NCBI GenBank assembly: GCA_964390715.1 | Contig: CAYMIM010000013.1 | Coordinates: forward strand, 27,311 to 91,310 | Length of the DNA: 64,000 nucleotides | Source of the DNA: Candidatus Woesearchaeota archaeon | GTDB taxonomy: Archaea; Nanobdellota; Nanobdellia; SCGC-AAA011-G17; UBA489 | Reading direction: 5' to 3' | In this document: piece by piece, positions 17,629 to 41,067 of the stretch | How positions within the stretch are numbered: the stretch's first letter is position 1 | How the letters are laid out: each line of letters starts with the position of its first letter | Translations under genes and position numbers: made by a program | Notes under the pieces: generated by a model | Database searches by the model: none | Told to the model about the DNA's origin: nothing | Seen by the model: only the letters and a program-made list of their open reading frames with translations

Positions 17629-17904
17629 GTGATGGAACAAGTATACACATTCATGACTGATAAGGTAAAGCTAGGAAATAAAGGGCAACTAACCATACCT
17701 AAAAAGATTCGTGATGAAAGTAATTATAAGAAGAATGATACATTTATTCTAAAGCGTATGCCGAGTGGTACAATGACGCTAGAGAAACAACAAAAGAGCG
17801 ATCCTTACGATATGATGTTCAAGGCGATCGCGATGGCTCCTAAATTTAATGCGGACAAGGCGTGGGAAGAAGTAAGAGCGGAACGAAAGCGTGAAAGGTC
17901 ATGA
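17629..17904 (+). CDS. vapB: AbrB/MazE/SpoVT-type antitoxin (VapB-like); ATG at 17632, the track used the GTG at 17629
   Basis: KVKLGNKGQLTIPKKIRDE is a swapped-hairpin DNA-binding motif. Overlaps the downstream PIN gene by 4 nt. Confidence 0.65.
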   Translation: MMEQVYTFMTDKVKLGNKGQLTIPKKIRDESNYKKNDTFILKRMPSGTMTLEKQQKSDPYDMMFKAIAMAPKFNADKAWEEVRAERKRERS

Positions 17905-18302
17905 AATATTGCGCGGATACGTGGTTTATTCTAAAAGTATTTGAAAAAGACCAGCAAGGAGCGCAGATTATAGAGGATACAAAATTAGGAAAAGCGAGGA
18001 TAATAATACCTATCAGCACATTCGCGGAAGCGACAAAAAAACTAATGCAAGGGGGCGTTCCATACAGTGTAATCGAATTATTTTTTCAAGGAGTTGAAAG
18101 CTCAGAAAAAGTAACATTAATTAGTCTAGAAAAAGATATCGCTCTCGAAGCGGCGAAAATTGCGTTAAGCTATAATATAGCGATGCTGGACGCGTTTGTA
18201 GCCGCGACAGCGAAAACAATGGGCTGTGAGTACGTTCTCACTAAAGATACGGATTTTAAGCCATTGATAAAAGGAAATTATCTAAAAGTAAAATCTTGGT
18301 AA
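17901..18302 (+). CDS. vapC: PIN-domain ribonuclease toxin (VapC-like)
   Basis: N-terminal DTWFIL (Asp1), central E, LDAFVAATA and TKDTDF acidic motifs. 133 aa. Translationally coupled to vapB. Confidence 0.65.
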   Translation: MKYCADTWFILKVFEKDQQGAQIIEDTKLGKARIIIPISTFAEATKKLMQGGVPYSVIELFFQGVESSEKVTLISLEKDIALEAAKIALSYNIAMLDAFVAATAKTMGCEYVLTKDTDFKPLIKGNYLKVKSW

Positions 18303-18526: not shown

Positions 18527-19021
18527 ATGAAAACCTATGGCTTTATGATGGTCTTCTTGCTGGGTATGATAATAGGAGTTCTTTTCCTTGCGTATGTGCC
18601 TCAAGATAAGCTCGAAATTCCTCTGTCAAAAGAAGTTCGAGAAACACCTATTCAAGCGCCTAAAGATCGTATCCAAGATGAGAGTATCCAGGTCTTCAAC
18701 GACAAGGTCGTTATTGATCTCAAAGATTTGAACGGGAGAAAAGTATCTTGGTCATCTTATGCGGACACAGAATCCATGGTGCCAACTTTAGATCAGGGAT
18801 GTAATGGGTTGGAATTTGTTCCTGCTTCACAAAAAGATCTCCATGAGGGTGACATGGTCGCTTTCGAGAAAAACAAAAGGATGATTATCCATCGAATTCA
18901 AAAAATGGGTCAAGATCAAGAAGGATGGTTCGCCATTACGAAAGGAGACAACAACCAGTATAATGATGGCAAGGTCCGCTGGTCAGAAATAAAATATGTG
19001 ACCTTCGGCATTATCTGTTAA
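18527..19021 (+). CDS. Archaeal signal peptidase I (Sec11/S26 family)
   Basis: N-terminal TM, SMVPTL (catalytic Ser box), GDNN box. 164 aa. Confidence 0.7.
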   Translation: MKTYGFMMVFLLGMIIGVLFLAYVPQDKLEIPLSKEVRETPIQAPKDRIQDESIQVFNDKVVIDLKDLNGRKVSWSSYADTESMVPTLDQGCNGLEFVPASQKDLHEGDMVAFEKNKRMIIHRIQKMGQDQEGWFAITKGDNNQYNDGKVRWSEIKYVTFGIIC

Positions 19022-19299
19022 AGCTTGGATAATTTTTTCTCTTGATATTCATGCAGGCATTCTTGTGAGCAGAACTTTAAAGTTTCATCATCAAATTCTT
19101 CCTCTACAGCGGAGTCTTCAATCATCTTTTTGCATTGAGCGCATTTGATAACAACTTCACTTTCATTATAGCCTTTCATGAAGCCTTCATCTACATCATC
19201 TAATTCATCTTCATCTTCTAGAAGTTCTTCTGGATCAGAATAGACATCATCATCTTTCTCATCTACTCCAATAGTATCATCGTCCTCTCCCATAAGCAA
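19018..19299 (-). CDS. Acidic N-terminus plus C-terminal zinc-ribbon small protein (93 aa); intact paralog of the split 4250..4613 locus
   Basis: DDDTIGVDEKDDDVYSDPEELLEDEDELDDVDEGFMKGY, then CAQC...FCSQEC. Confidence 0.55.
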   Translation of the reverse strand: MLMGEDDDTIGVDEKDDDVYSDPEELLEDEDELDDVDEGFMKGYNESEVVIKCAQCKKMIEDSAVEEEFDDETLKFCSQECLHEYQEKKLSKL

Positions 19300-19371: not shown

Positions 19372-19830
19372 TTAACACGTCATGGTGTCAAAGGAAGTCT
19401 GGATAGTGTCACGATGACTCTTATAAGTGGAAGAAATGCAGGAAAAATCAGCTAAATAAGTATAGCCAGAAGGGCAGCTCAAGATACGCGCGTCTCCCAC
19501 TCGCTCATCAAGAATAGTGTAGTGCGCAGTCACAAATGATTCTAAGACTGTGTAGTCTCCAAGTGCCATGGGATCGCTAGAGCGAAGAGAAGCGAAGAAG
19601 GATTGCGCGGCTTGCAAATAAGTTTGTGTGGAAATAGTCAGGTTGAAGGCGCAAGATTTATCCGCAAAAAAAATTCCAGTTGGTTTTCCAGCGACATTGG
19701 TAGTCATCTGCTCTTCACCCATATCAGGGACATCTAGGGAAAAAGTGTAGTGACGAAGATGAACAGAAGGAGTGCATCCGCTTAAAAAAAGAGTGAAGAA
19801 GAGAATAAGAAAGAAATAATAGTTAGGCAT
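19372..19830 (-). CDS. Putative secreted lipoprotein (lipobox-like LSGC), unknown function
   Basis: MPNYYFFLILFFTLFLSGCTP signal/lipobox-like N-terminus. Confidence 0.45.
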   Translation of the reverse strand: MPNYYFFLILFFTLFLSGCTPSVHLRHYTFSLDVPDMGEEQMTTNVAGKPTGIFFADKSCAFNLTISTQTYLQAAQSFFASLRSSDPMALGDYTVLESFVTAHYTILDERVGDARILSCPSGYTYLADFSCISSTYKSHRDTIQTSFDTMTC

Positions 19831-19837
19831 GGCGCGA

Positions 19838-21841
19838 TTAGTCTATTTTTCCACTACCAGTAATGGGGTAGCAACAGTTATTGACGTCGCATCCATATTT
19901 TTCTGGATCTCCACAATCGCTAGGCTGAGAACAGCTTTGCCCGCCAGTTTTACAAATAGGAGGTTTAGGATCTGGCTGACAGGAGCAACCGCTTGGACCA
20001 TTAGGTTTGCAAGTGTAGTTGGGTGAGCAAGCGCCGCCACAAACAAGCCCTGAACAATAAGGCAATGCTCTGCAACCGCTCGGAGTGATTGGTCCTGTTG
20101 TAGATCCTCCTGGGCCCCATCCTGGGAGAGCGGGTGGTAATGGCGGCACTACAGGTGCTGGATCGCCTGGTCCGCCGGGATAAGGTCCAACTGCTCTGCG
20201 AGCACTTCCACTACAAGTACAGTCTGCTAAACAGGTAGTTCCTGCGGGACAATAACCTACAGTACCAGGCTCACATTCTTCGAAAAAATCAACCCGACCA
20301 TTGCCACAGCTACTGCCACCTAAAGGTCGACAGTCACAGAAAGCGGTGCATTCTTTTCCAACAGGACAACCTGAAGGACTTTTTCCAGTATCACATTGCT
20401 CCCATCCTGTAGATGAAATTTTACCATCGCCACAATAATCAGTAAAAGTATAGCAGGTGCATCCTTTAGTGCATACTTTGCCAGTACCACAGCCACTAGA
20501 AAGAATAGGATCACCATTATTCGCGCCATCATCGCAAAATTCTGGACCCTCGATGTTACCATTGCCACAAAATGCGGGAGGAATACTGGGTGATGTGCAT
20601 TGACAAGTGAGATGACTACAGCGTTGTGGTGAAGTGCAAGCTCCAGGAGGAATAACTTGACCGTTTGCATCAAATTCACAATTTTCTGAACCTTCAATAC
20701 GACCATCGCCACAAGTACTGCCGATGCTAGGAGGTTCACAAACACCACCTTTAAGAAGATTACAAATATCGCCTAAATTGCATTCACTGTTTTTAGTGCA
20801 GGGTCTGCAGGCGCCAAAAATAGGGCTAACAATTTCTTTGTCGCAGATTTCATTGCCATAGTTGCATTCATTATTGCCACCACAAGGGCGACATTGTTTA
20901 ATGAGAGTATCACAGATGGGTTTTTTTGGATCTTGCGATTTGCATTCTGCATTGTTAATACAAAGACCAATACCTTCTCTACCACAACGGGAAGGTTGTG
21001 TAGAATCAATACACCATTCAGTAGGGTTGCAATCCTTAACGATCCTACCGTTACTATAATAGGGTGTTTTAGTTCCTGCTGGAGAGTCACAAGGTTCACA
21101 ATAATGAGAGAGTGTATTGCAAACCATGGCGGGATAATTACAATCTTTATTTGTTAGACATGATTTAAAAGGATCACTACACCGTCCGCCTAAGCATATT
21201 TGTCCACTAGTAGTACATTGATTATCTCTGGCGCAAGGAATACAGACACCATTGGCAATATCACAAAGACCCGTAGTTTTCTCGCAGTCTTCATTTTTAC
21301 TGCAGGAGCATTTGCATGCTTGTGGATGCTCGCGGGGGAAGCAGCCTAAAGAAGTTACAGAGCTGCCACAGGCAGATTTATCTTTGCCGTCGCATTGCTC
21401 AAAAGCTTCTCGTTGATTATTGCCACATTCATAAAGCAAAACATTGGTATCATTATTATAGAGTTGGACATAATGTAATCCTTCATTCAAAGGAAGAACA
21501 CCAACAACATCTGCGGGTACGTTCAGTGTCATGTCATTGCCAGCTAATTTGTAGCACAGCATGCCTTTATTACACCATCTTGTTGATCCGCCACTGCTTG
21601 GACCAACTTGTTGTTGAGTAACTCCGCTAGGGACGCGCATGACAACAACACTGGAAGTGCCAGAACCTAAATTATTGACTTGGGTAATCCCGACATTTAA
21701 CGCTTGTAAAGCGTCTTGTAATTCTGCCAAGCGATTGCTGTCAATGCGTTCTGTGGAGAAGAAAAGTAAGGGAATAATGACAACTAAGATAACACAAGTT
21801 AAGATCAAATAATCAAACGTAGATTGTGCTTGCTTCTGCAT
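19838..21841 (-). CDS. Large Cys-rich repeat surface protein with archaeal class III (type IV pilin-like) signal peptide; candidate pilus-associated adhesin
   Basis: Start placed at MQKQAQ/STFDYLILTCVILVVIIPLLFF (Q+1 and D+5, pilin-like, then a hydrophobic helix). About 600 aa of CxxC-rich repeats (CEPCDSP, CRPCGGNNEC, CRPCTKNSEC). Pro/Gly-rich linker GGPGDPAPVVPPLPPALPGWGPGG. The track's longer 686-aa ORF has an unlikely N-terminal extension. Confidence 0.6.
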   Translation of the reverse strand: MQKQAQSTFDYLILTCVILVVIIPLLFFSTERIDSNRLAELQDALQALNVGITQVNNLGSGTSSVVVMRVPSGVTQQQVGPSSGGSTRWCNKGMLCYKLAGNDMTLNVPADVVGVLPLNEGLHYVQLYNNDTNVLLYECGNNQREAFEQCDGKDKSACGSSVTSLGCFPREHPQACKCSCSKNEDCEKTTGLCDIANGVCIPCARDNQCTTSGQICLGGRCSDPFKSCLTNKDCNYPAMVCNTLSHYCEPCDSPAGTKTPYYSNGRIVKDCNPTEWCIDSTQPSRCGREGIGLCINNAECKSQDPKKPICDTLIKQCRPCGGNNECNYGNEICDKEIVSPIFGACRPCTKNSECNLGDICNLLKGGVCEPPSIGSTCGDGRIEGSENCEFDANGQVIPPGACTSPQRCSHLTCQCTSPSIPPAFCGNGNIEGPEFCDDGANNGDPILSSGCGTGKVCTKGCTCYTFTDYCGDGKISSTGWEQCDTGKSPSGCPVGKECTAFCDCRPLGGSSCGNGRVDFFEECEPGTVGYCPAGTTCLADCTCSGSARRAVGPYPGGPGDPAPVVPPLPPALPGWGPGGSTTGPITPSGCRALPYCSGLVCGGACSPNYTCKPNGPSGCSCQPDPKPPICKTGGQSCSQPSDCGDPEKYGCDVNNCCYPITGSGKID

Positions 21842-21924
21842 GATACTCTTTTCCTTAAGGCTTATTTTTTCAGGATGGTATAAATACTTTATGAACAACT
21901 CTCAAGGAATAACAAAAAGAAGCA

Positions 21925-21940
21925 AAGTTTATATACTACT
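21925..21940 (+). promoter_or_regulatory. TATA-like element (GTTTATATACTA) in the divergent intergenic region upstream of pilin gene 1; a second TATA (TATTTATACC, minus strand) serves the Cys-rich gene
   Basis: AT-rich box about 60 to 70 nt upstream of the ATG at 22001. Divergent arrangement with the 19838..21841 gene. Confidence 0.3.
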
Positions 21941-22000
21941 GCAACGTCAAAAATTGTATCCATGTTCAAACAAAGTAAACGAATAAGAGGTGGTAAGAGA

Positions 22001-22486
22001 ATGGTGCAAAAAAGAGGACAAGCGGCCATGGAGTTCTTGATGACTTATGGCTGGGCGTTGTTAGTAGTTTTAATCGCGATTGGCGCTTTAGCGTTCTTCG
22101 GAGTATTGAATCCAAGTAGATTCTTGCCGAACTCCTGTACTTTAGCTCCAGGATTTAGTTGCAATGACTTCAGAGCAAGTGATGGCGATGATAATATCCT
22201 TGTTGTGATTCAAAATGGATTAGGTGACAATCTCAACTCAGTTACTTTAAAGTTATCTGGTAGTAACCCTGATTGTGGCGGTTCATCATCAACAACAGGA
22301 AGAGCATTTACACCAGGATCAACGACACTCAATGATGGTGCATCAACTCAATTTACCATGGCCTGTACTGCAGGTAACTTGGTTAAAGGAAATAAGTTGA
22401 AAGGAGACCTTCAAATTGATTATACTATCGGAACAGGTCTTGCACATAAAAAAATTGGTCAACTAGTTGTTGGAATTGAAGCGTAG
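22001..22486 (+). CDS. Archaeal type IV pilin-like protein (class III signal peptide)
   Basis: MVQKRG/QAAMEFLMTYGWALLVVLIAIGALAFFGVL: basic leader, Q+1, E+5, hydrophobic helix. The track's start at 21962 adds an unlikely 13-aa extension. Confidence 0.7.
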   Translation: MVQKRGQAAMEFLMTYGWALLVVLIAIGALAFFGVLNPSRFLPNSCTLAPGFSCNDFRASDGDDNILVVIQNGLGDNLNSVTLKLSGSNPDCGGSSSTTGRAFTPGSTTLNDGASTQFTMACTAGNLVKGNKLKGDLQIDYTIGTGLAHKKIGQLVVGIEA

Positions 22487-22554: not shown

Positions 22555-24396
22555 ATGAAAAAGAAAACAGAGATAATCCTTGTTATTCTATTATTGTTGC
22601 TTGCTACAGCATGGAGATTTATTTTTTGGCATAATGGCATTTTTGGTTCAGATGCTCTTTATCACTATAGTGTTGTAGAACAAGCACTTAAAGAAGGAAA
22701 ACTATCTAATGATAACCTATTGTCAGTGTGCTACGAAGGAATAACTACTGGACATCCTCAGGGGTATTATGTTGTGCCTTATTTTCTAGGAAAAATCGTG
22801 GGAGTTGATAATGCATTCATAATAGCTCCGATAATTCTAGGATTAATAACGCTTTTTTGTGCATACTTGCTCATTAAGTCAATATGGAATACTAAAGTTG
22901 CGCTGCTCACGCTTTTTTTTCTCGCGATTTCATTAGGACATATCTCTAAGTCATTTGCTTTTTCATGGAGGGGAGAAAATATAGTCTATCCGTTCATTCT
23001 TTTATCCTTATTCTGGATGCTAAAATCCTTTTCAAAAAAGGAAAAAAGCTCTGCCATCCTTGCTGGAATCATATCTGGTCTTACAGCATGGTTCTGGAAT
23101 GGATACCCCTTAGTGATGATTGTTTTCTTTTGCGCACTTTTTTTCTACATTAGTTGCCAGTACTTCAAAGCAGACATATTGAGGTTTAAAGAAGAGATAA
23201 ATTTAGCAACAATAAGTGTAGGAAGCCAAGCAGTCGTATTAATGTCAATTATCTACCTAACTGAGCAGTCAGGAAAAGCAGTCTTGTTTGGAAAAGAATA
23301 TTATCTTTGGGGTGTACTAATGAGTATACTTGCTCTTTGGGTTTTAAGAATAAGCAAGGTAAAAAAAACGAAAAAACCATTTATTGGTGTTGTAATCATA
23401 GGAGCAGGTATAGTTTTCCTTTTATGGAATAAAATAAGGACAATCGCACAAGGTTTTGGTTCAATAAAGCCAGAAATGCCCATTCTTGAGCTACAACAAA
23501 CATTGCCTCATCAATATTTTTTCGCATTTTACATACTATGCGTCACAAGTATTTTAGGTTTGTATTTTTTCTGTAAAGAATTCAATAATAAAAAAGCAAT
23601 TTTCGCAGGCTTATTAATGCCTAGTCTCTATTTAATAATCACTGCTAGTAGATATATTTATTTTGCGAGCATCCCCATAATCACATTGACAGCTATATTC
23701 TTAAACAATAAAAAAATTATAAGAAAGAAATTTGATATCTTTATTGTAATAACTTTTGCCTTAATGGCTATAATGATGATCTACTCGTTGTATGCGGTAC
23801 CAAGATATTTTTCAGAAAGTTTATTTATTGATACTCAAGAGCCTTATTTGTTTATAAAAGAGAATAGTGAGACGGATGCGTGCGTTGTTGAAATCTCTGG
23901 GCGTGGAGCAACTATTGAGGGATTGTCAAAACGATATTCGTATTTTGAACCAATAGGATTTTCTGAAGAAAGACATAGAAAAGTAGGATCCTTCCTTTTG
24001 GCGAATACTTCTGAGAATACGCTAGGGATCGATAATCTCTACATACTCCTTAATTATCGCGATTTTTCAAAATTAAGAGGGATGGCAAAAGCTGCTGAAA
24101 AGAATAATATTACTTTTTTCAGAATAAATGAAGGCATGAATGAAAAAGTGAATGAAACTAAAGTAAAAGAAGATTCTAATTTCATGAAATATATCTATGT
24201 AAATGAAAAAATGTTCATAAATGAAAGTGGCAAAGGATGTGTATATGTCTATTTAAGTGATTATTTTTATCTAAGTGATGAAATCTGTGAATCAAACATG
24301 TTTAAAATGATTACCAACCAAACTATGAAAAATTTCAAGAATGTTTATTTCAAAGATGGTTATGCTATCTACAAGTACGAAGTTAGTGCTTCTTAA
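22555..24396 (+). CDS. Polytopic GT-C-fold-like membrane glycosyltransferase (ArnT/PMT/oligosaccharyltransferase-like), about 400-aa TM domain plus about 200-aa soluble C-terminal domain
   Basis: More than 10 hydrophobic helices. Early loop FGSDALYHYSV is an acidic D-containing motif reminiscent of GT-C first-loop motifs. No WWDYG motif, so not a canonical AglB. Confidence 0.4.
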   Translation: MKKKTEIILVILLLLLATAWRFIFWHNGIFGSDALYHYSVVEQALKEGKLSNDNLLSVCYEGITTGHPQGYYVVPYFLGKIVGVDNAFIIAPIILGLITLFCAYLLIKSIWNTKVALLTLFFLAISLGHISKSFAFSWRGENIVYPFILLSLFWMLKSFSKKEKSSAILAGIISGLTAWFWNGYPLVMIVFFCALFFYISCQYFKADILRFKEEINLATISVGSQAVVLMSIIYLTEQSGKAVLFGKEYYLWGVLMSILALWVLRISKVKKTKKPFIGVVIIGAGIVFLLWNKIRTIAQGFGSIKPEMPILELQQTLPHQYFFAFYILCVTSILGLYFFCKEFNNKKAIFAGLLMPSLYLIITASRYIYFASIPIITLTAIFLNNKKIIRKKFDIFIVITFALMAIMMIYSLYAVPRYFSESLFIDTQEPYLFIKENSETDACVVEISGRGATIEGLSKRYSYFEPIGFSEERHRKVGSFLLANTSENTLGIDNLYILLNYRDFSKLRGMAKAAEKNNITFFRINEGMNEKVNETKVKEDSNFMKYIYVNEKMFINESGKGCVYVYLSDYFYLSDEICESNMFKMITNQTMKNFKNVYFKDGYAIYKYEVSAS

Positions 24397-25723
24397 AGAA
24401 GATAAGTTTAATGGTTAACAAAAGAATCTTGATATCAAAGAACAAAGACCAGTTCTCAATATAAAAAACATCGTGTTTAATACGTTCATCTAGAGAAGTG
24501 TTACCGTAATAGCCATTGACTTGCGCCCAGCCAGTCATGCCTCCTTTGACAGCATGTCGTTCAAGATAGTGAGGTATTTTATCTTTAAACTGGTTGATAA
24601 AGAAAGGTCGTTCTGGTCTAGGTCCTACAAGAGACATATGCCCTAAAAAGACGTTGAAAAGTTGCGGTAGTTCATCTAAATTAGTTCTTCGTAAAAATCC
24701 GCCAAGAGGAATAATTCTAGAATCATGATTGTCCGCCCACTTTGGACCAGTTTGGTGTTCAGCGTCCGGCATCATAGTACGAAATTTATAAAGAATAAAA
24801 GGCTTAGAATTATAAGAAACTCTTTCCTGTTTGTAGAAAACGAATCCTTTCGAAGTTAATTTGATAAGAAAAGCAATCACAATAAATAAAGGTAAAGAAA
24901 GTAAGATAAAAAATAAAGAAAAAAAGATATCTACTAGCCGTTTCAAAACAGGATTAAATCCTTTCAAGTTTGTTTCTTTAATATGTAAAACTGAAAGAGG
25001 GCCTATTTGCTCAGGAAGTGATCTCTTGGTGACAATATCAACAATACTGGGCACTACCTTATAAGAAATATCATGTCCTCCTTTCTCCATAATATAAAGT
25101 ATCTTGGATTGATCTTCTTTAGGCAAATGCATAATAATTTCATCGACTACATGAGTAGATAAGAGTTGACTTAATTGTTTCAGAGAAGAAGGATTGAGAA
25201 AATGAGCTAATCGATAACCATGTTCTCTGGTAATTTTTTCTTGGAAAAACTTTCTATACATAGGATCACAAATAAGCAAAGCAGTAGTTAAAAGATAGCC
25301 CCGACGGTTAAGATATGATCTCAAAGAGTTCAAAAGAAGTCTTCCAAAGCTAATAAAAAGAAAGCTGAAAATAAAACTTACAGCTATAAAGATCCTTGAA
25401 TAAGAAACTTCACGTTGAAGAAAAGTAAAAGTGACAAAAATAAAGAAAACAAAGAGTGTAGACTTGAAAATAGTATAATATTCCTCAAATATTTTTTCCT
25501 TTTTATACAGATGGAGTAAATTAAAAATAATAATATAGATAACTACAATAAAAACTAAGCTAAAAAGATAAGTAATAAGCGAAGGAATTCCTTTAGTCAC
25601 ATCTAAAATACCAGAATAGAATCTAAACCAGAAAGAAAAGAGATAAGCGGTTGCAATAAAGAAAATATCTATCAATACAGTAAGAAAGATGATAAACGAT
25701 GAATTTTTTTTAAACATGCTCAT
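24383..25723 (-). CDS. Polyprenyl-phosphate sugar phosphotransferase, WbaP/bacterial sugar transferase family (initiating phosphoglycosyltransferase)
   Basis: C-terminal domain KPFILYKFRTM...LDELPQLFNVFLGHMSLVGPRPERPFF...GMTGWAQVNG matches the family signature. N-terminal TM helices. Confidence 0.8.
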   Translation of the reverse strand: MSMFKKNSSFIIFLTVLIDIFFIATAYLFSFWFRFYSGILDVTKGIPSLITYLFSLVFIVVIYIIIFNLLHLYKKEKIFEEYYTIFKSTLFVFFIFVTFTFLQREVSYSRIFIAVSFIFSFLFISFGRLLLNSLRSYLNRRGYLLTTALLICDPMYRKFFQEKITREHGYRLAHFLNPSSLKQLSQLLSTHVVDEIIMHLPKEDQSKILYIMEKGGHDISYKVVPSIVDIVTKRSLPEQIGPLSVLHIKETNLKGFNPVLKRLVDIFFSLFFILLSLPLFIVIAFLIKLTSKGFVFYKQERVSYNSKPFILYKFRTMMPDAEHQTGPKWADNHDSRIIPLGGFLRRTNLDELPQLFNVFLGHMSLVGPRPERPFFINQFKDKIPHYLERHAVKGGMTGWAQVNGYYGNTSLDERIKHDVFYIENWSLFFDIKILLLTIKLIFFKKH

Positions 25724-26487
25724 AGTAATCTAAACCCATATTTCTTATAATAAATAAACATGCTCTTTAGGTGGTAAAAAAAGGTTTTGCTAAAGAGATT
25801 ATAGCTTGCTCGTTGATAAACATGGGTAGCTATAGCGGAAGGATAGTATACTATTCTCCAGCCAGCTTTTTTCGCTCTTTGGCATAAGTCTATATCTTCA
25901 AAATAAAGGAAAAAATGATGATCTAAAAGCCCTATCTGATCAAACGCTGTGCGACGAATAAAAAGAAATGCGCCAATAGACCAATCGACGTCTTGAGTTT
26001 TATCATGATCAATATCCAACATAAGATAATTTCTTACTATTCTAGATCTAGGGAAAAAAGGTTGAATAAAATGTGCTAAAAAAACTGGATATCGTCTACA
26101 AGAAGGCTGTAAAAGATTATTAGGATAGAGGAGTTTGCAAGAAAGAACACCAACAGAGGTCTGCTTCTGCATATAAGTAAACACTTTTTGCAGGGTATCT
26201 TTTTGTACATATACATCAGGGTTTAAAAGTAAAATATAATCTCCTCGAGATTGTCGTATAGCTATATTGCATGCAGAAGAAAAACCAACATTTTTTATAG
26301 TTCTAATCAGAGTAACAGGATAACGTTGAAGAATAGCTAAAGTAGTATCTTTGGAGTTATTATCCACAACAATAATTTCTAGATCTTTGAAAGATTGTTG
26401 TTGAAGAGCCTCAAGACAAGAACCAATATACTTTTCAGAGTTATAAGTAACAATAACAACTGAAATAGTTAGTTTAGGTTTTGGCAT
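25720..26487 (-). CDS. Glycosyltransferase family 2
   Basis: ISVVIVTYNSEKYIGSCLEAL...IIVVDNNSKD...DxD-type region. Confidence 0.7.
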   Translation of the reverse strand: MPKPKLTISVVIVTYNSEKYIGSCLEALQQQSFKDLEIIVVDNNSKDTTLAILQRYPVTLIRTIKNVGFSSACNIAIRQSRGDYILLLNPDVYVQKDTLQKVFTYMQKQTSVGVLSCKLLYPNNLLQPSCRRYPVFLAHFIQPFFPRSRIVRNYLMLDIDHDKTQDVDWSIGAFLFIRRTAFDQIGLLDHHFFLYFEDIDLCQRAKKAGWRIVYYPSAIATHVYQRASYNLFSKTFFYHLKSMFIYYKKYGFRLL

Positions 26488-26490
26488 AGT

Positions 26491-27294
26491 TTAGGAAAGC
26501 TTGTTAGCGGCAAATTTCTTCATCTGTGCTCTAAATCGTTTTGTTATAAAGGGTCGTAACAATAATCTATAACTTTTATACAAAGGATAAAGCAAAATAT
26601 AGGACGGTCTAGTAAAGAGATGTGGATGATTCTTTTTAATTCTAGAATAGAGATAAGCATGCTTCTGAAGAGCGTTATGAATCATAGTTTTGCCATGTTT
26701 TCGATAGAAAAATAAAGGTTCTGGAATGACAAAGGATTGCCAATTGCGCTCTAAAAGAGAGATGTAAAAGTCCCAATCCTCATAGCCATAAATCATGTTC
26801 TGATTATACCCTATAGTTTGGTTATATGCTTTTCTTCTAATAACAGAAGACACAACTGCTGAATTGTAGAAACGCATGCTACTCAAAGTTGCAGTTCCAG
26901 TGACTCCAATCCCCTGTACATCACCAAAATACTGAATATAGGGGTAAACAAAACCAATAGTAGCAGAAGATTCCAAAATGTTGACAGCTTTTTCAATATA
27001 CGTAGAATCTATGCAATCATCAGCATCTAAAGGAAGGAAATATTTTCCACGAGAGCGTCGAATGCCATTGTTTCGTGCTGAAGCTAGTCCTTGATTATCT
27101 TGATGAATCACAGTAATGTTCTTGTGGCGAATACTGCCAAGCACTTTTTTCGTATTTGTGTCAATTGATCCATCATTGACAACAATAATTTCAATAGGCT
27201 TGTAAGTAGAAGATAAAACACTCTGAAGAGTTTCCTGAATATAGTTACCATAATTATAACAAGGAACAATAACACTCACTAAAGGTAAAGTCAT
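26491..27294 (-). CDS. Glycosyltransferase family 2
   Basis: VSVIVPCYNYGNYIQETLQSVLSST...IIVVNDGSID...LDADD. Confidence 0.7.
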   Translation of the reverse strand: MTLPLVSVIVPCYNYGNYIQETLQSVLSSTYKPIEIIVVNDGSIDTNTKKVLGSIRHKNITVIHQDNQGLASARNNGIRRSRGKYFLPLDADDCIDSTYIEKAVNILESSATIGFVYPYIQYFGDVQGIGVTGTATLSSMRFYNSAVVSSVIRRKAYNQTIGYNQNMIYGYEDWDFYISLLERNWQSFVIPEPLFFYRKHGKTMIHNALQKHAYLYSRIKKNHPHLFTRPSYILLYPLYKSYRLLLRPFITKRFRAQMKKFAANKLS

Positions 27295-28328
27295 AATTTC
27301 ATCCTCCGGAAAAGTGCATTAAATCGTTTTTCATAAGTATGATCTCGTAAAGTTCTGGTATAAGCTGCTTTCGCTATAGCTATTCTTTCATCATCATGGT
27401 TAAGATAATAGTTTATTTTTTCTAAAAGATCTGGGATAGTAGTAAAAACAACAATTTCTTTATTAGGAATATAATAATCTTCTAAATTATCAGCAGAATT
27501 AGTTAATAAAAAACTACGAGTTCCTGGAATCTCAAAATTACGACCTTTTATCTGGTCCTGTGACAGAAAGAAAGTTCTGAAGGTATTAAGTATTTCTCTA
27601 GGAGGTTTAATATAAGGCTTATTTCTTTTAAAAAAAAGACGAAGAAAGTTTTTATTGGTTGATACATTAGTTAAATTAAGATTGATTTTGCTTTGAGAAA
27701 AACAATCTAGCATAGCTTCTTGTGTCAATCTACCTTGTGGCCAGCCAGTTCCCCAGCAAGTAATGTCCACGCCTTTATTTTTTAGTGTTTGAATAATCTG
27801 TTTTCGATCTCCATGAGATTGTCCTACAAAAGAAACAGGGTATTTTTTCTTTGCTGAAGAAGGTTTATAAAAAAAATGATTGCATGCCCACTGTGTAGCA
27901 AGTACTTGGTTGTAACCAATGCGATGATAAAGAGGTAAAGCTTGTGAGTAAGTTGTTGATACCCAGTGAAAATCTGGTGCATAATATTGAGAATAAGTAT
28001 AAAAACGCCAATGATCATCCGCAAACCAATTAAAAGTAATTGCACCGCTATGTGCGGTGATATATTGAATAGTAGCGTGTGTAATTTCATCTGTGAATAA
28101 AAAAAAGAAGCAAAGATCAGGTTGTATTTCAGAAACTTTCTTGAGTAATAAAGCATTCATAGCTTCCTTGCCAATTTTATGCATTATTTCATCAAACGGA
28201 AAATAGATAATTTCATGTTTTTTATTATTCATATGAACTAAAGAATGATAAAAATTGTAATGTTCAAAACTGTATCCCCTGCCCATCTTTCCATAATCGT
28301 ATTTCATCGCTATGTAAAGAATTTTCAT
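27291..28328 (-). CDS. Glycosyltransferase, GT-B (GT1/GT4, CgeB-like) C-terminal domain
   Basis: C-terminal NFEIPGTRSFLLTNSADNLEDYY...EIVVF...LLEKINYYLNHDDERIAIAKAAYTRTLRDHTYEKR resembles GT4/CgeB donor-binding domains. Confidence 0.5.
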   Translation of the reverse strand: MKILYIAMKYDYGKMGRGYSFEHYNFYHSLVHMNNKKHEIIYFPFDEIMHKIGKEAMNALLLKKVSEIQPDLCFFFLFTDEITHATIQYITAHSGAITFNWFADDHWRFYTYSQYYAPDFHWVSTTYSQALPLYHRIGYNQVLATQWACNHFFYKPSSAKKKYPVSFVGQSHGDRKQIIQTLKNKGVDITCWGTGWPQGRLTQEAMLDCFSQSKINLNLTNVSTNKNFLRLFFKRNKPYIKPPREILNTFRTFFLSQDQIKGRNFEIPGTRSFLLTNSADNLEDYYIPNKEIVVFTTIPDLLEKINYYLNHDDERIAIAKAAYTRTLRDHTYEKRFNALFRRMKL

Positions 28329-28586
28329 AGGATAATATGTTTAGGCGTCCTTTTTATTTTTATGGGCTGGGCTATTTATAAGGAACGCTAGCCTTTTATA
28401 GACTTATTATAAGTTTATGGGATGCTATCCAGAGTAAAGAATAAAATAATTTCTCAGATAGACAGAGTAAAGCAAAGGCAAACTAACAAAAAAAGATTGG
28501 CCTTCTTTAAAAAAATTAAAAAATATAATAAATAAGAAAAGAAAAGATCTAGCTTTCACAGTTAAAGATGATATTATCCGAATACA

Positions 28587-29285
28587 TCAAATATGGGCTC
28601 GCCAGATAAAGAAAGTATCATGAAGATTTAGTTGAACATTCTTAAAACCAGATTGCAATAAAAGTTCCTTAAAGTAAGTTGGTTGATATTCTCGTATATG
28701 AAAGGGAGAATCGCTGAATTTTTCAAGAGAAGTATTATTGGTTGGTGTACAACCAATAAAAAATCCTTCTTTTTTCAAATGTTTTTTTATGTAATGCAAT
28801 AAAGTAACAAAATTCTGTTCACTAATATGTTCAACAAATTCAGTGCTAGAAATAACATCAAAAAGACCAAAATTATCTGATAAAATGGTAATATTCTTTT
28901 GGTGATAGGTTATTTTTTTGTTGTGAGAAAATCGAAATTCAGCTGGAGATATCTTATCTACAGAAATAACACTCTGGACAGTATTTTGGTTGGCAATCTG
29001 ATGAGTAAGATAGCCGAATCCACAGCCAATATCAAGAACTCTTCCATGAACAAGAGAAAGAATAGGTTGTGAATAAGCTTCAAAATACTCTTTTTCTGCA
29101 TCTGTAGTAGTCGGATCATATCGTTCAGTTGGTGGAATAAAAAAAGCATGGATTCGAATATAAAGAGGAGAAATAACAGGTAGACGAGTCATCTTTTTAG
29201 TAAAAGAAAATAAAAAAGGAAGTTTAACCTTCACATAATTTTTTGTAGAGGAGAAAAGGTTCATAAGTTTTGTTCCTTTAGCCAC
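28587..29285 (-). CDS. Class I SAM-dependent methyltransferase
   Basis: VLDIGCGFGYLT (motif I GxGxG). Confidence 0.65.
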   Translation of the reverse strand: MAKGTKLMNLFSSTKNYVKVKLPFLFSFTKKMTRLPVISPLYIRIHAFFIPPTERYDPTTTDAEKEYFEAYSQPILSLVHGRVLDIGCGFGYLTHQIANQNTVQSVISVDKISPAEFRFSHNKKITYHQKNITILSDNFGLFDVISSTEFVEHISEQNFVTLLHYIKKHLKKEGFFIGCTPTNNTSLEKFSDSPFHIREYQPTYFKELLLQSGFKNVQLNLHDTFFIWRAHI

Positions 29286-29929
29286 ACGTCTAGGATTTCT
29301 TTTTCCTTACCTATTAAAGAAAGGGATAAAATTTCTTTGGCAACAGCTTTTTCATTGATAGGTTTAAAGGATTTCTTAGCTGTCACAAGAATATTATCTA
29401 AAAAGTCTACAGCACTAGGAAGAACTTTATTTGCATGTTTAGAAATTCTGCTTGGAATATATTTGCTAGTATAATTGGTAAATAATTTAACTTGAATATC
29501 TTCAAACCCGAGTTTATCAAGAATATATCTAAATTTTTTTTCTCCCCAATAATCTAAATGAAATGCCCAAGGAGACTCTTGTGAACCAAAAATATGTCGT
29601 GCTATTTTAAATTGTGTTTTGAGGTCTGCTGTAGCAAATTTCTTGACAGTAGTTTCAAAATCTGGAGTTTCAAGCACTAACTTTCCACCAGGTTTTAACC
29701 ATCTACGCCAGCGAAATAAGTGTTTTAAGATCTCTTGTCGTGAAAAATGTTCAAGAAGGTGATGTGTTCGCACTTCATCAACGCTATTGTCTGCATATGC
29801 AAGCTCTCGAATGTCTTTATACACATCGGCTTTTGCCTTCATAACTGTTTGACCTTCTGTAGGGAGATCAATATTGACATAGCCAGCTAAATAACTCTCT
29901 CCACAACCTAAATGTAATTTTACTTCCAT
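29261..29929 (-). CDS. Class I SAM-dependent methyltransferase
   Basis: HLGCGESYLAGYVNIDL (motif I-like), LKPGGKLVLETPD (post-motif II). Confidence 0.55.
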   Translation of the reverse strand: MEVKLHLGCGESYLAGYVNIDLPTEGQTVMKAKADVYKDIRELAYADNSVDEVRTHHLLEHFSRQEILKHLFRWRRWLKPGGKLVLETPDFETTVKKFATADLKTQFKIARHIFGSQESPWAFHLDYWGEKKFRYILDKLGFEDIQVKLFTNYTSKYIPSRISKHANKVLPSAVDFLDNILVTAKKSFKPINEKAVAKEILSLSLIGKEKEILDVWLKEQNL

Positions 29930-30609
29930 GTTTTTATTTCACCTTTTTCCAAATACAAAATTCTATCGCTGAATTTTTTAACAGTAGCAATATCATGACT
30001 TACAAAAAGAATAGTCTTCTGTTGTTTTTTGAAATTTCTAAAGACTTCATAACATTTTTTCTGGAACACTTCATCTCCAACTGCTAAAACTTCATCCACT
30101 AAGAGAATGTCAGCATCAACTTGACTAGCTATCGAAAAGCCAAGACGAGCAACCATGCCTGAACTGAGATTTTTAAGTTTGGTATCAACAAATTTTCTAA
30201 GGTCAGAAAAGGAAATAATAGTGTCATATCGTCTCTCTATCTCTTGATGAGATAAGCCTAGCAAAGAACCATAGAGAAATATATTCTCTTTGACTGTTAA
30301 TTCTCCTTGAAATCCAACTCCTAATTCTAAAAAAGGACTTAAAGTGCCATGAACATGCACATAGCCTTGAGTAGGTTGTAATACTTTAGCAATAATTTTG
30401 AGAAAAGTGCTCTTGCCTGCTCCATTTGGACCAACAATACCAATAAATTCTCCCTTCTTGATGGATAAACTAACATCTTTCAAAGCATAAAAACGTTCAT
30501 AAGAATGGCTGAGATTAAAGAGACCTAGAATATAAGATTTAACCCCATACTTTTTATCGTGAGGAATGTTAAAAATTTTCGTAACATGCTCTAAAGAAAT
30601 AATATTCAT
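29920..30609 (-). CDS. ABC transporter ATP-binding protein, polysaccharide/O-antigen-type exporter (Wzt/KpsT/TagH-like)
   Basis: Walker A GIVGPNGAGKST, signature LSSGM, Walker B ILLVDE. Start overlaps the upstream methyltransferase. Confidence 0.8.
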   Translation of the reverse strand: MNIISLEHVTKIFNIPHDKKYGVKSYILGLFNLSHSYERFYALKDVSLSIKKGEFIGIVGPNGAGKSTFLKIIAKVLQPTQGYVHVHGTLSPFLELGVGFQGELTVKENIFLYGSLLGLSHQEIERRYDTIISFSDLRKFVDTKLKNLSSGMVARLGFSIASQVDADILLVDEVLAVGDEVFQKKCYEVFRNFKKQQKTILFVSHDIATVKKFSDRILYLEKGEIKTWK

Positions 30610-31364
30610 TAGACTAACTCCGCAAAATAGACTGCCATTTTTTTATAGATAAAGAGTCCTATGAAAAAAACTAGTAAAGAATAACCAAGTGATAACACAT
30701 AGAAAGAAAAATTAAAGTGGTTGGAAAGAAGAAGGTCTCTCAGTCCTTCAATAATCAATGCAAACGGATTAAGATACATAAAAGAAAGGAATCGCAGAGG
30801 AATAATATTGACAGGATAGACAATAGGAGTCAGCCAGAAAAATGATTGAAGAAGTATCCTCCAAATATGCTGTACATCTGGAAAGCGAATTGTTAACGCG
30901 CCAACAATATAGGAAATACCCAAAGTAAGTAAAAATAAATTAAAAAGGAAAAAGATCATCAAGAAAGAATGGAAAGAAAAAGTAAAGCCAGTAAAGAAAT
31001 AAAAGATAAAGAATACCAAAAAATTAAGAACCAATCCTAAAAAAGTTGTTATGTTAGATGCAAAAACTATAACTGTTCTGGGAAAATAGATTTTTTTCAT
31101 AATGCTAGATTTAACGGAGAGTGAAGTAATAGCATTTAAGGTAGCTTCATTAAAAAATCCCCAGAGAATAATGCCTAAAAATAAGAATAATGGATAATGT
31201 TCTACCTTGAACTTGACAAAGTAGCTAAAAACAACATATAACACCGTAAAAGTCAATAAAGGATTTAACAAAGACCATAAGTATCCTAGGGCAGATCCCT
31301 GATATTTAAGTTTAAAGTCGGTCCATGCGAAAATCTTTACAAGATTTAAGTAATATCTATCCAT
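30609..31364 (-). CDS. ABC-2 type transporter permease (Wzm/KpsM-like)
   Basis: 6-TM 251-aa protein immediately upstream of, and overlapping, the ATPase gene. Confidence 0.7.
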   Translation of the reverse strand: MDRYYLNLVKIFAWTDFKLKYQGSALGYLWSLLNPLLTFTVLYVVFSYFVKFKVEHYPLFLFLGIILWGFFNEATLNAITSLSVKSSIMKKIYFPRTVIVFASNITTFLGLVLNFLVFFIFYFFTGFTFSFHSFLMIFFLFNLFLLTLGISYIVGALTIRFPDVQHIWRILLQSFFWLTPIVYPVNIIPLRFLSFMYLNPFALIIEGLRDLLLSNHFNFSFYVLSLGYSLLVFFIGLFIYKKMAVYFAELV

Positions 31365-31463
31365 AAAATGGTTTTAAATCTGAAGGTTATATAACTTTTG
31401 TCATTCTCGAGTGGAAGAATATCTTTAAAAAGACAGAATTACTCCTAATCCGAGGTGAAAAGA

Positions 31464-32075
31464 GTGCAAAAAAGAGGACAAGCGGCCATGGAGTTCTTGA
31501 TGACTTATGGTTGGGCGTTGTTAGTAGTCTTAATCGCGATTGGCGCGTTAGCGTTCTTCGGAGTATTGAATCCAAGTAGATTCTTGCCACAACAATGTGT
31601 TCTAGGTCCAGGTCTTGCTTGCGCAGACTTCAAAGTAACATCTGTAGACCAAAAAGTACAAATCACTGTACAAAACGGCTTAGGTGAAGATTTAAAACAA
31701 TTCCAAATCTATGTTGATAATGTAGGCGGTAAGCACAAATGTGGAGGCTATTATGGCTACGTTGCATTTTATGTTAATTCTGCAAGTAGAAGTCCGCCTC
31801 TCCGAGACGGCAGTGCAGAGAAACTAATAAATTTATTTAATGGAAATGGTATTCAATGTGGAGGCGGTGTTAACAATTGTTGTACAGATTTCAAAAAACC
31901 TCCTTTGGGATTATATCCTTATGATCTATGCCCTTCAATAACGTCCTGCTATGCGGGAGAGCCACAATGGAAGGTAGGAGAAAAATTCAGTGAAGATATT
32001 GTAATCACTTATCAAACAGAAGGATCACAAATTCTCCATCAGCGAGTAGGTAGATTGACCACGCAAATTGAATAG
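31464..32075 (+). CDS. Archaeal type IV pilin-like protein, paralog of 22001..22486 with near-identical signal peptide/N-terminal helix; alternative GTG start at 31455
   Basis: (MKR)VQKRG/QAAMEFLMTYGWALLVVLIAIGALAFFGVLNPSRFLP, then a divergent Cys-containing C-terminal domain. TATA-like TCTTTAAAAAG about 30 nt upstream. Confidence 0.7.
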   Translation: MQKRGQAAMEFLMTYGWALLVVLIAIGALAFFGVLNPSRFLPQQCVLGPGLACADFKVTSVDQKVQITVQNGLGEDLKQFQIYVDNVGGKHKCGGYYGYVAFYVNSASRSPPLRDGSAEKLINLFNGNGIQCGGGVNNCCTDFKKPPLGLYPYDLCPSITSCYAGEPQWKVGEKFSEDIVITYQTEGSQILHQRVGRLTTQIE

Positions 32076-39657: not shown

Positions 39658-41067
39658 ATGAATGGAAAAAATGCGTCGTTCATCGTACTTATTGCCCTTC
39701 TGGTTATACCTCTCGTTTTTGCGAACCCTATTACTATTGTAGTAATGGAATCGCAAGACGAAGTGGAAGCGGGCAGCGTCGCGGAATTTACAGTAAAGAT
39801 AACCAATGATGGGTTAGATCGTGACGTCTTTAGCATCGAGCCGGACGAGTTTAATGTTTATCCCTTCTCTGACTTCGCTCAAAGAATTGAGGCTAAGCCG
39901 TCACAGGTAAAATTAGATGCTGGAGAAAGTGCTATCGTAAAAATTCTCATTAAAACCATTGATGTCACGCTACCAAATAAATATTATGATTCTAAAATCA
40001 TTGTCTCTTCAGTCATCCATCCAGAAAGTAAAGAGTCCATAATGCTCAAGACATATGTCGCGTCAGCGAAAAATATTATCGAGATTGTACCGCGGCTGGT
40101 GCAGCAAATCACGCCAGGAAAAGAAATTAATGTGCCCATCAAATTGAAGAATCGTTCTAGGTTAGTTATGGATCTTGAAGTTACTCTGGGTACTGACATT
40201 CCAAATATTGCCGAGCCTCTGCGCGTGAGCTTGCGGTCGCAAGAAGAAAAGCAAGTGGAAATGAAAATAAATGTTGATCCAACAGCGCTTCCAGGAGAGA
40301 GAAAGATAACTATTGCCGCTTATGAGAAAGATCAGCTTCGTGGCTCATTCATAACTGAGGTGTCCATCCTTCCAAAAGATCGTGTTGAAGAAGACAGAGA
40401 CGTAAAAAGAGGTTTCTTGTCATCCACGACAACTATCATTCGTGAAAATAAAGGAAATGTCGCTAGTGAGCAGCGAGTTGAGGCGAAATATAATATAATC
40501 CAGCGTATCTTTTCATCCATGACGCCAAAGCCAGAGACAGAGATAGGAAAAGTCATCTGGAAATTCACGTTACAGCCAGGAAGCAAGAAAACTATTGAGA
40601 TTTACAGCAATTACCGTCCTTTGCTCTATGGTATAATCGCGGTGATAATCTTTACAGCCATAGTGCTGTTCTCTATCGAGCGCAGCGTCGTCATCAAGAA
40701 GCGTACCTTCCGTGGAAAAGAAATGGTTGAGGGAGTAAAAGAATACAAGATTTTCATCTTGGTGCGTAATGGAAAGAAATATACTCTAAGCGATGTTAAA
40801 GTCATGGATCTCGTGCCCAACATATTGAATCTAACTTCTGATTTTGGATCATTGAGGCCTGACAGAGTGCAGCATAGTGATCGCGCGACGCGCTTGTTGT
40901 GGAATGTCATCAAGCTGGAGCCTCGTGAAGAGCGTGTCTTTTCCTACAAGATCCGCTTGAAGGACTCTATTGTCGGTGAAGTTGTTCTGCCTGTGGCTAT
41001 CATTCAGTTCGTAGACGCTAAGGACAAATTTGAGCAAGTCCAGTCCATGCGTGTTATTCTCGGATAA
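39658..41067 (+). CDS. Signal-peptide surface protein with beta-sandwich-like ectodomain, single C-terminal-proximal TM and about 130-aa cytoplasmic tail; function unknown
   Basis: MNGKNASFIVLIALLVIPLVFANP signal. TM YGIIAVIIFTAIVLFSI near residue 340. Confidence 0.5.
   Translation: MNGKNASFIVLIALLVIPLVFANPITIVVMESQDEVEAGSVAEFTVKITNDGLDRDVFSIEPDEFNVYPFSDFAQRIEAKPSQVKLDAGESAIVKILIKTIDVTLPNKYYDSKIIVSSVIHPESKESIMLKTYVASAKNIIEIVPRLVQQITPGKEINVPIKLKNRSRLVMDLEVTLGTDIPNIAEPLRVSLRSQEEKQVEMKINVDPTALPGERKITIAAYEKDQLRGSFITEVSILPKDRVEEDRDVKRGFLSSTTTIIRENKGNVASEQRVEAKYNIIQRIFSSMTPKPETEIGKVIWKFTLQPGSKKTIEIYSNYRPLLYGIIAVIIFTAIVLFSIERSVVIKKRTFRGKEMVEGVKEYKIFILVRNGKKYTLSDVKVMDLVPNILNLTSDFGSLRPDRVQHSDRATRLLWNVIKLEPREERVFSYKIRLKDSIVGEVVLPVAIIQFVDAKDKFEQVQSMRVILG

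Follow-up and report, generated by a model that had tools for sequence, protein, structure and literature searches.

A class III signal modular pilin-like protein with a cysteine-rich stalk, candidate adhesive subunit of type IV pili in a Woesearchaeota archaeon

A pilin gene and a gene for a cysteine-rich protein stand back to back in a 64,000-nucleotide stretch of DNA (the window, taken as a whole) from a Candidatus Woesearchaeota archaeon (GenBank assembly GCA_964390715.1, contig CAYMIM010000013.1). The cysteine-rich protein, the subject of this report, is encoded on the minus strand at 19838..21841; we are confident that it is a modular pilin-like protein with an archaeal class III (prepilin) signal. 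An earlier inspection of the letters alone (the sequence-only reading) had placed an open reading frame (ORF) at these coordinates, and it is real: it runs uninterrupted from an ATG for 667 residues. That reading also described a giant protein, made almost entirely of Cys modules and holding more than 80 cysteines. These descriptions need correction: the length is 667 residues, the cysteines number 74 (11.1%), and the first 138 residues (21%) form a Cys-poor pilin module with three Cys. Glycine contributes 12.3% and proline 8.8%; His occurs just 4 times. For comparison, the mean Cys content over the window's 45 other ORFs is 0.94%, with a maximum of 4.4%.

The longest ORF that can be drawn mechanically extends beyond this ATG to a TTG at 21898, 19 codons further 5'. 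The sequence-only reading had named a true start at an upstream Met as the observation that would speak against it; the 19-codon extension contains no in-frame Met, only the TTG. The divergent intergenic region (21842..21961) is 83% identical among four aligned loci (the window and the related loci L001, L007, and L008), and two TATA-like boxes within it are invariant; both are putative promoter elements. The TTTATA box (21879-21884, minus strand), about 41 nucleotides upstream of the ATG, would serve the modular pilin gene, and the TTTATATA box (21928-21935, plus strand) would serve the divergent pilin gene. Relative to the ATG, the TTG sits beyond the conserved TTTATA box. The stretch from this box to the ATG differs between loci by insertions or deletions of 6-7 nucleotides and is therefore non-coding. 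In addition, 10 of 10 homologues begin 4-10 residues ahead of an invariant Gln. Together, these three observations place the start at the ATG at 21841, and the box position and the frame-breaking length differences rule out the TTG.

The N-terminus reads MQKQA/QSTFDYLILTCVILVVIIPLLFFS, where the slash marks the predicted cut between Ala5 and Gln6. The putative class III leader MQKQA (residues 1-5) occupies 21827..21841, and the mature pilin module (residues 6-138), defined by AlphaFold2 (AF2) modeling, hhalign, and profile search, occupies 21428..21826, both on the minus strand. Past the cut, the sequence QSTFD(+5)YLILTCVILVVIIPLLFF brings an Asp at +5 and then about 20 hydrophobic residues: the hydrophobic alpha-1 helix with an acidic +5 residue that characterizes class III signals. 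Across 10 homologues, position -1 is A, G, or S, as in class III leaders, and Q6, D10, Y11, L12, L14, T15, and P24 are invariant together with Gly, Pro, His, and Asn positions of the head. The cleavage sites of orthologues are canonical (KRA/Q, KG/Q, and KA/Q). Judged by its sequence, the signal is of the QxSxEYL class III type, with Asp replacing Glu. A Sec or lipoprotein-type signal was considered and rejected, since the protein lacks a lipobox and keeps the conserved QxxxDYL motif. AF2 models the pilin module as a 57-residue N-terminal helix (residues 2-58) followed by seven strands, with a predicted local distance difference test score (pLDDT) of 80.9. Of its three Cys, one lies in the helix, and the others form the loop pair C90/C96. 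The pilin-type N-terminus of the sequence-only reading (leader, Gln+1, Asp+5, and hydrophobic helix) is present. The concern raised with it, that homologues might lack such an N-terminus, can be set aside: no other part of the family is conserved as well.

The module belongs to a large family. Its profile, searched against 1.84 billion cluster representatives (50% identity), retrieves 598 representatives at E<=1e-3, of which 98 remain at E<=1e-10; a word-indexed search with the N-domain alone retrieved two fragments only. Where organisms could be named, the family is linked to DPANN archaea. The best 154 of the 598 include 56 proteins of no more than 200 residues (typically about 130, with a median Cys content of 0%) and 60 of more than 400 residues, 38 of which exceed 5% Cys. 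The small stand-alone proteins carry textbook class III N-termini, for example, MKRRG/QASTEYL and MKA/QAAVEYL; in 40 of them, Gln at the cut column and Glu at the +5 column are each at least 90% conserved. The Pfam class III signal family, PF04021 (Class_IIIsignal), matches 20 of these 40 directly, along with 7 of 46 large members. Aligned by hhalign, the family of the target and the 40 stand-alone proteins match with 99.9% probability (E 6.7e-35) over 136 columns, the head included. We therefore regard the target as a modular pilin, not merely an adhesin with a pilin-like signal, since its first 140 or so residues are a full pilin module. The suggestion that it resembles disulfide-knot repeat adhesins rather than any standard archaeal pilin is only half right in view of this module.

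Beyond the pilin module, the large members differ widely. Homologues of the target share the module and the first Cys modules and then diverge in architecture. In a Pfam scan of 46 large members, we found LamG_3 (10 members), DUF4215 (8), MopE motifs (6; best match E 3.6e-44), and the Ig-like Big_13 (5), as well as NHL, DUF2341, VWA, and fn3 modules. Among individual proteins, P0003, P0004, P0006, and P0007 carry a K319L-like PKD domain, P0009 and P0010 carry LamG, and a paralogue-type protein in locus L006 matches DUF4215 at 3.9e-9. Between the window and its syntenic orthologues, the pilin module is 68-82% identical, and alignment of the C-terminal part stops after about 130 residues, with 42-49% identity up to that point. 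The housekeeping genes that flank the orthologous loci are mostly 72-92% identical. The distal part of the protein is hypervariable. The pilin-module family is almost invisible to domain databases, and both types of Cys module described below are unannotated or fall under threshold.

In the target, residues 139-667 form a stalk of two kinds of Cys-rich module, a linker, and a knob, all on the minus strand. The stalk opens with a six-Cys module of type B, CGNNQREAFEQCD...C.C (residues 139-180; 21302..21427), delimited by pattern matching and module alignment and attached with no spacer to the final strand of the pilin head; C139, G140, N141, E145, E148, Q149, C150, and D151 are invariant in the family. 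About seven four-Cys units of type A follow (residues 181-376; 20714..21301), each of roughly 23-28 residues, with the consensus C-x2-[ND]-x-[DEQ]-C-x5-9-C-x3-11-G-x-C-x-P. One unit, at about residues 271-293, is degenerate, and the Cys columns of the array are invariant across homologues. Four tandem type B modules come next (residues 377-545; 20207..20713), bringing the total to five in the target. Their pattern is CG[DN]G-x5-8-E-x-C[DE]...C...C...C-x-C; an alignment of 26 type B modules shows six Cys, five of them invariant and the sixth at least 90% conserved. The Pro/Gly-rich linker that the sequence-only reading had seen near the C-terminus corresponds to a Cys-free segment of 44 residues (residues 546-589; 20075..20206), with an AF2 pLDDT of 24-27; comparable linkers occur in P0002 and P0008. 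The protein ends in a knob of 78 residues with 13 Cys (residues 590-667; 19841..20074; stop codon at 19838-19840), which aligns with the C-termini of P0002, P0008, and P0017 and reaches a local pLDDT of 65-76.

Profile searches for families of Cys repeats, proposed in the sequence-only reading, were informative for one module type and empty for the other. Type B modules resemble those of DUF4215 (PF13948) and TIGR02232 (myxo_disulf_rpt) in opening with the half-motif CG[DN]G-x(5-8)-E-x-C-[DE], and this core is repeated in tandem in the target as five CG[DN][GN]...E.C[DE] modules. They differ from DUF4215 in having six Cys and ending in C-x-C, as opposed to the four-Cys pattern of P0012, a protein annotated with DUF4215. 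The resemblance stays under threshold: the NCBIfam scan matches TIGR02232 at 13.5 bits (E 0.048), short of the 20.8-bit cutoff, and PF13948 is not reported for the target at E<=1. No relative of the type A units turned up in Pfam, NCBIfam, or PDB sequences. The Pfam scan of the target returned nothing, on either the pilin module, which goes without a Pfam match in the target's closest relatives as well, or the Cys-rich part, and the PDB sequence search, with the whole protein and with type A and type B profiles, gave nothing significant. Matches to the start of the ADAM17 disintegrin region (E 0.062) and to an atracotoxin (E 0.17) were set aside. Foldseek matches of the full-length AF2 model to LRP2/megalin and follistatin were likewise disregarded (probability <=0.04).

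The Cys residues are the best-conserved columns and dominate the invariant positions among homologues. On the strength of this conservation, the even four- and six-Cys patterns of the modules, and the extracellular location, we predict that they are paired in disulfide bonds. Alternatively, they could mainly bind metals (Zn, Cu, or Fe), and the protein would then be an extracellular metal-sequestering device or a redox-active wire mounted on a pilin. C-x2-C junctions do recur between type A units, some large family members contain many MopE "putative metal-binding" motifs, and many Woesearchaeota inhabit anoxic groundwater, where disulfides are less favored. The target itself, however, has no MopE match in Pfam, His residues are as scarce as noted above, and the regular four- and six-Cys pattern, with its likeness to DUF4215 and the myxo "disulfide" repeat, is a better fit to disulfide-rich extracellular modules. 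We give a metal-binding role little credence.

The genomic neighborhood ties the protein to pilins. As the sequence-only reading had stated, the gene lies divergently from a canonical pilin gene: a UPF0333-type pilin with the class III signal KRG/QAAMEFLMTYGWALL is encoded at 21962..22486 on the plus strand and is a candidate major pilin. The search with this pilin family found 1213 homologues at E<=0.001; among the matches listed, all named taxa are Woesearchaeota or Nanoarchaeota, and several entries are called "UPF0333 family" by the Joint Genome Institute (JGI). A second pilin paralogue, which starts with GTG, lies at 31455..32075 on the plus strand, and its first 182 nucleotides are 86% identical to those of the first pilin gene. 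A scan of genome contigs for related loci yielded only four. Across seven loci compared, a UPF0333-type pilin divergently adjoins the modular pilin in five (the window, L001, L006, L007, and L008). In L007 and L006, the two pilin types adjoin each other and the modular pilin; in L006, the two pilins are followed by three tandem members of the modular pilin family. The pilin module of L006 is only 34-37% identical to that of the target, and the linkage to pilin genes is kept.

Stand-alone members of the family extend this association to the assembly machinery of type IV pili (T4P). P0077 is the first gene of a T4P operon whose order is three small ORFs, a VWA protein, a 295-residue ORF, a CBS protein, the ATPase T2SSE, and two platform proteins of the T2SSF type. 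P0085 has KaiC-like ATPases and a series of small ORFs as neighbors. At the level of the family, then, the association with T4P assembly or pilin genes holds.

Architecture, homology of the pilin module, and conserved linkage to pilin genes lead us to the following reading. The target would be a modular minor type IV pilin that is assembled into the pilus as an adhesive subunit, which we consider probable; for a position at the pilus tip, we see the chances as evenly balanced. The N-terminal hydrophobic helix would put the protein into the membrane, and MQKQA would be cut off, leaving Gln at +1 and Asp at +5, by a class III (prepilin) signal peptidase whose gene would lie elsewhere in the genome. 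The pilin module of about 130 residues (alpha-1 and a small beta head) would then enter a type IV filament made mainly of the neighboring UPF0333-type pilin or pilins. The remaining 530 or so residues would extend from the final strand of the head; because of this steric bulk, the protein would be a low-abundance subunit, most plausibly at the tip. It would present a disulfide-stabilized stalk of about seven four-Cys units and five six-Cys modules, then a flexible Pro/Gly hinge, and finally the 13-Cys end knob, which may bind a ligand on a surface or on a host cell.

Several observations weigh against this reading. Some concern the N-terminal module: the predicted cleavage site conforms at -1, +1, and +5, as the sequence-only reading had asked to be checked, but the -2 residue is an atypical Gln, not the usual Lys or Arg, with a Lys at -3; the target has no PF04021 match at E<=1 in the Pfam scan. 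Nor was a structural match to solved pilins, bacterial ones included, detected for the module or its head. Others concern the ectodomain: the full-length AF2 model is poor (pLDDT 53.7), with the Cys-rich part modeled badly, and 71 Cys, an odd number, lie past the pilin head. The last concern the setting: the gene has no adjacent pilin in two of the seven loci (L004 and L005), and no A24 prepilin peptidase, T2SSE, or T2SSF was found among the 39 window ORFs scanned. These 39 include all ORFs at about 11.5-44.5 kb; some two dozen more, at 0.9-11.4 and 45-64 kb, were only read.

The departures at the N-terminus would suit an uncleaved type II signal-anchor protein whose likeness to class III signals is incidental and whose ectodomain is a generic S-layer-associated or matrix structure unrelated to pili. 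Against it stand the invariance of the Pro in the helix, of Gln+1, and of the acidic residue at +5, the canonical sites KRA/Q and KG/Q of orthologues, and a profile link to PF04021-positive proteins that is transitive but very strong; we hold this explanation to be quite improbable. The setting raises a more serious alternative: an envelope protein for which the class III signal serves merely in export and anchoring. Once processed, it would remain tethered in the membrane by its hydrophobic helix, or sit in a short pseudopilus-like stub, with the stalk projecting from the cell body, in the manner of Sulfolobus sugar-binding proteins, which have class III signals yet form no long pili. Besides the lack of pilus machinery in the ORFs scanned and the two loci devoid of an adjacent pilin, it can draw on the difficulty of packing a 530-residue extension into a filament body and on the processing of non-pilin substrates by PibD-type peptidases (PMC4858521). 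Against it, homology spans the whole module of about 136 residues, including the head, and not the signal alone; a stand-alone member heads a T4P operon; and the linkage to pilin genes persists in L006 at the low identity given above. We judge the envelope-protein explanation unlikely, and the modular minor pilin remains our preferred reading.

Modular pilins are established in bacteria. In Streptococcus sanguinis, PilB bears a vWA module and PilC a lectin module of the ConA-like kind (Raynaud et al. 2021, PMC8179133); the vWA and lectin-like modules confer adhesion, and modeling puts the bulky subunit at the tip (PMC8179133). The target likewise consists of a pilin module (residues 1-138) followed by 529 residues of non-pilin modules, it belongs to a family with many alternative architectures (LamG/ConA-like and VWA among them), its gene lies beside genes for candidate major pilins, and it is predicted to fit only at the tip. 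Unlike the bacterial proteins, it has an archaeal class III signal (Q+1, QxxxD/EYL) and not the IPR012902 N-methylation motif, no similarity of its head to solved bacterial pilins could be detected, and its predicted effector is a series of about 12 small Cys-rich modules with a hinge and a knob and not one globular domain.

Among archaeal systems, the closest parallel is the clade or system 1 T4P (Methanococcus Epd-type), whose loci combine small ORFs, one T2SSE, and two T2SSF; T4P loci of archaea have also been predicted to encode large adhesin-like proteins with class III signals (Makarova et al. 2016, PMC4858521; bioRxiv 10.64898/2026.04.22.720090). The operon of P0077 shares this layout, with T2SSE and two T2SSF, the stand-alone relatives are small class III proteins, and the large class III members of the target family, a distant one with DUF2341, recall the adhesin-like proteins. 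The target differs in lying beside stand-alone pilin genes and a glycosylation island instead of a machinery locus, and it could not be placed in a named arCOG; its Cys-rich effector is not among the architectures described in the parts of these papers that were read.

The proposed role, that of a large tip-presented adhesin with variable distal modules, is by analogy also that of PilY1/PilC in bacterial type IVa pili. PilY1 is not a pilin and docks via a beta-propeller onto minor pilins. The target, unlike PilY1, has a pilin module of its own, and Pfam detects no propeller or DUF2341 domain in it. The principle of the modular pilin is thus already known, from bacterial modular pilins and from predicted archaeal class III adhesin-like proteins; the archaeal Cys-rich version is uncharacterized, and we found no description in the literature of such proteins in DPANN archaea.

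Other genes surround the pilin cluster. Immediately downstream of the modular pilin gene, a 152-residue ORF (19372..19830, minus strand) has a lipobox-like N-terminus (FLSGC) and C-terminal Cys. A tblastn search locates it downstream from the modular pilin gene in L001, L007, and L008 (33-49% identity), and in L006 the matching position holds, by reading only, a lipoprotein-like ORF with similar C-terminal Cys. It has no family match in Pfam or NCBIfam; by its position and N-terminus, it may be an accessory protein of the modular pilin system. In relatives, two to four small secreted Cys-rich proteins (150-210 residues, with an N-terminal hydrophobic segment and 10-20 Cys) are encoded downstream of the modular pilin, at 11722-14324 in L001, 12450-13390 in L005, and 14918-15959 in L006; the window lacks them.

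Between the two pilin paralogues lies a glycosylation island of about 9 kb (22555-31364). It encodes an STT3/PMT_2-like membrane protein of 613 residues, a Bac_transf protein, two GT2 and a GT1-like glycosyltransferase, two methyltransferases, and an ABC-2 exporter. Because the glycosyltransferases of the window and L001 are only 24-28% identical, the island appears to be an inserted cassette that varies between strains. The pilin module has a sequon of its own, N130-D-T132 (nucleotides about 21446-21454), in the last hairpin of the head; the motif is NNGT or NNDT in 10 of 10 homologues, and 32 of 40 stand-alone relatives have a sequon within their last 30 residues. The sequon and the adjacent island hint at N-glycosylation of the pilin module.

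Further from the pilins, the window is archaeal by its gene content, which includes aCPSF1, a proteasome subunit, and EF-2; ORFs at 45-55 kb read, by inspection only, like RNA polymerase subunits. The related loci come from Candidatus Woesearchaeota/Nanoarchaeia metagenome-assembled genomes. An archaeal-type signal peptidase I (18527-19021, plus strand; TIGR02228, E 1.9e-11, just under cutoff) and a very acidic zf-FCS/TRASH protein of 91 residues (19018-19293, minus strand) are syntenic with the pilin cluster in L001, L007, and L008. Between aCPSF1 and the signal peptidase, the window carries a pair of genes for a MazE/AbrB-type antitoxin and a PIN-domain toxin (17632-18302, plus strand), and L001 has a different gene, of 200 residues, at this position. 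The EF-2 gene (55540-59217, plus strand; 1225 residues) is interrupted within the GTP-binding domain by an intein that includes a LAGLIDADG homing endonuclease domain; in L006, an RNase J-like gene also bears an intein. Two large secreted proteins (39658-41067, plus strand; 41244-43331, minus strand) have Sec-type, not class III, signals; one is weakly DUF11-like, and the other combines TIG and Ig-like domains with a weak MopE metal-binding motif.

Woesearchaeota and other DPANN archaea presumably live attached to other cells. To our knowledge, the means by which they find and hold their hosts are essentially unknown, and almost none have been cultivated. Tentatively, and as a conjecture that we would call doubtful rather than probable, the module of about 140 residues could be a universal carrier that mounts fast-evolving Cys-rich or lectin cassettes on the type IV pili of DPANN archaea; distal modules would then set the specificity of these episymbionts for host or partner, and the glycosylation island and the lipoprotein would share in the same attachment organelle.

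At the level of the locus, the finding offers a concrete candidate for a host-attachment device in DPANN archaea: a pair of pilins, a modular pilin with a hypervariable Cys-rich stalk, a small and conserved lipoprotein-like gene, and a strain-variable glycosylation island. At the level of the family, its 598 representatives indicate that archaea make wide use of the modular pilin strategy described in bacteria. Both types of Cys-rich module could enter domain databases, which would improve the annotation of DPANN surface proteomes.

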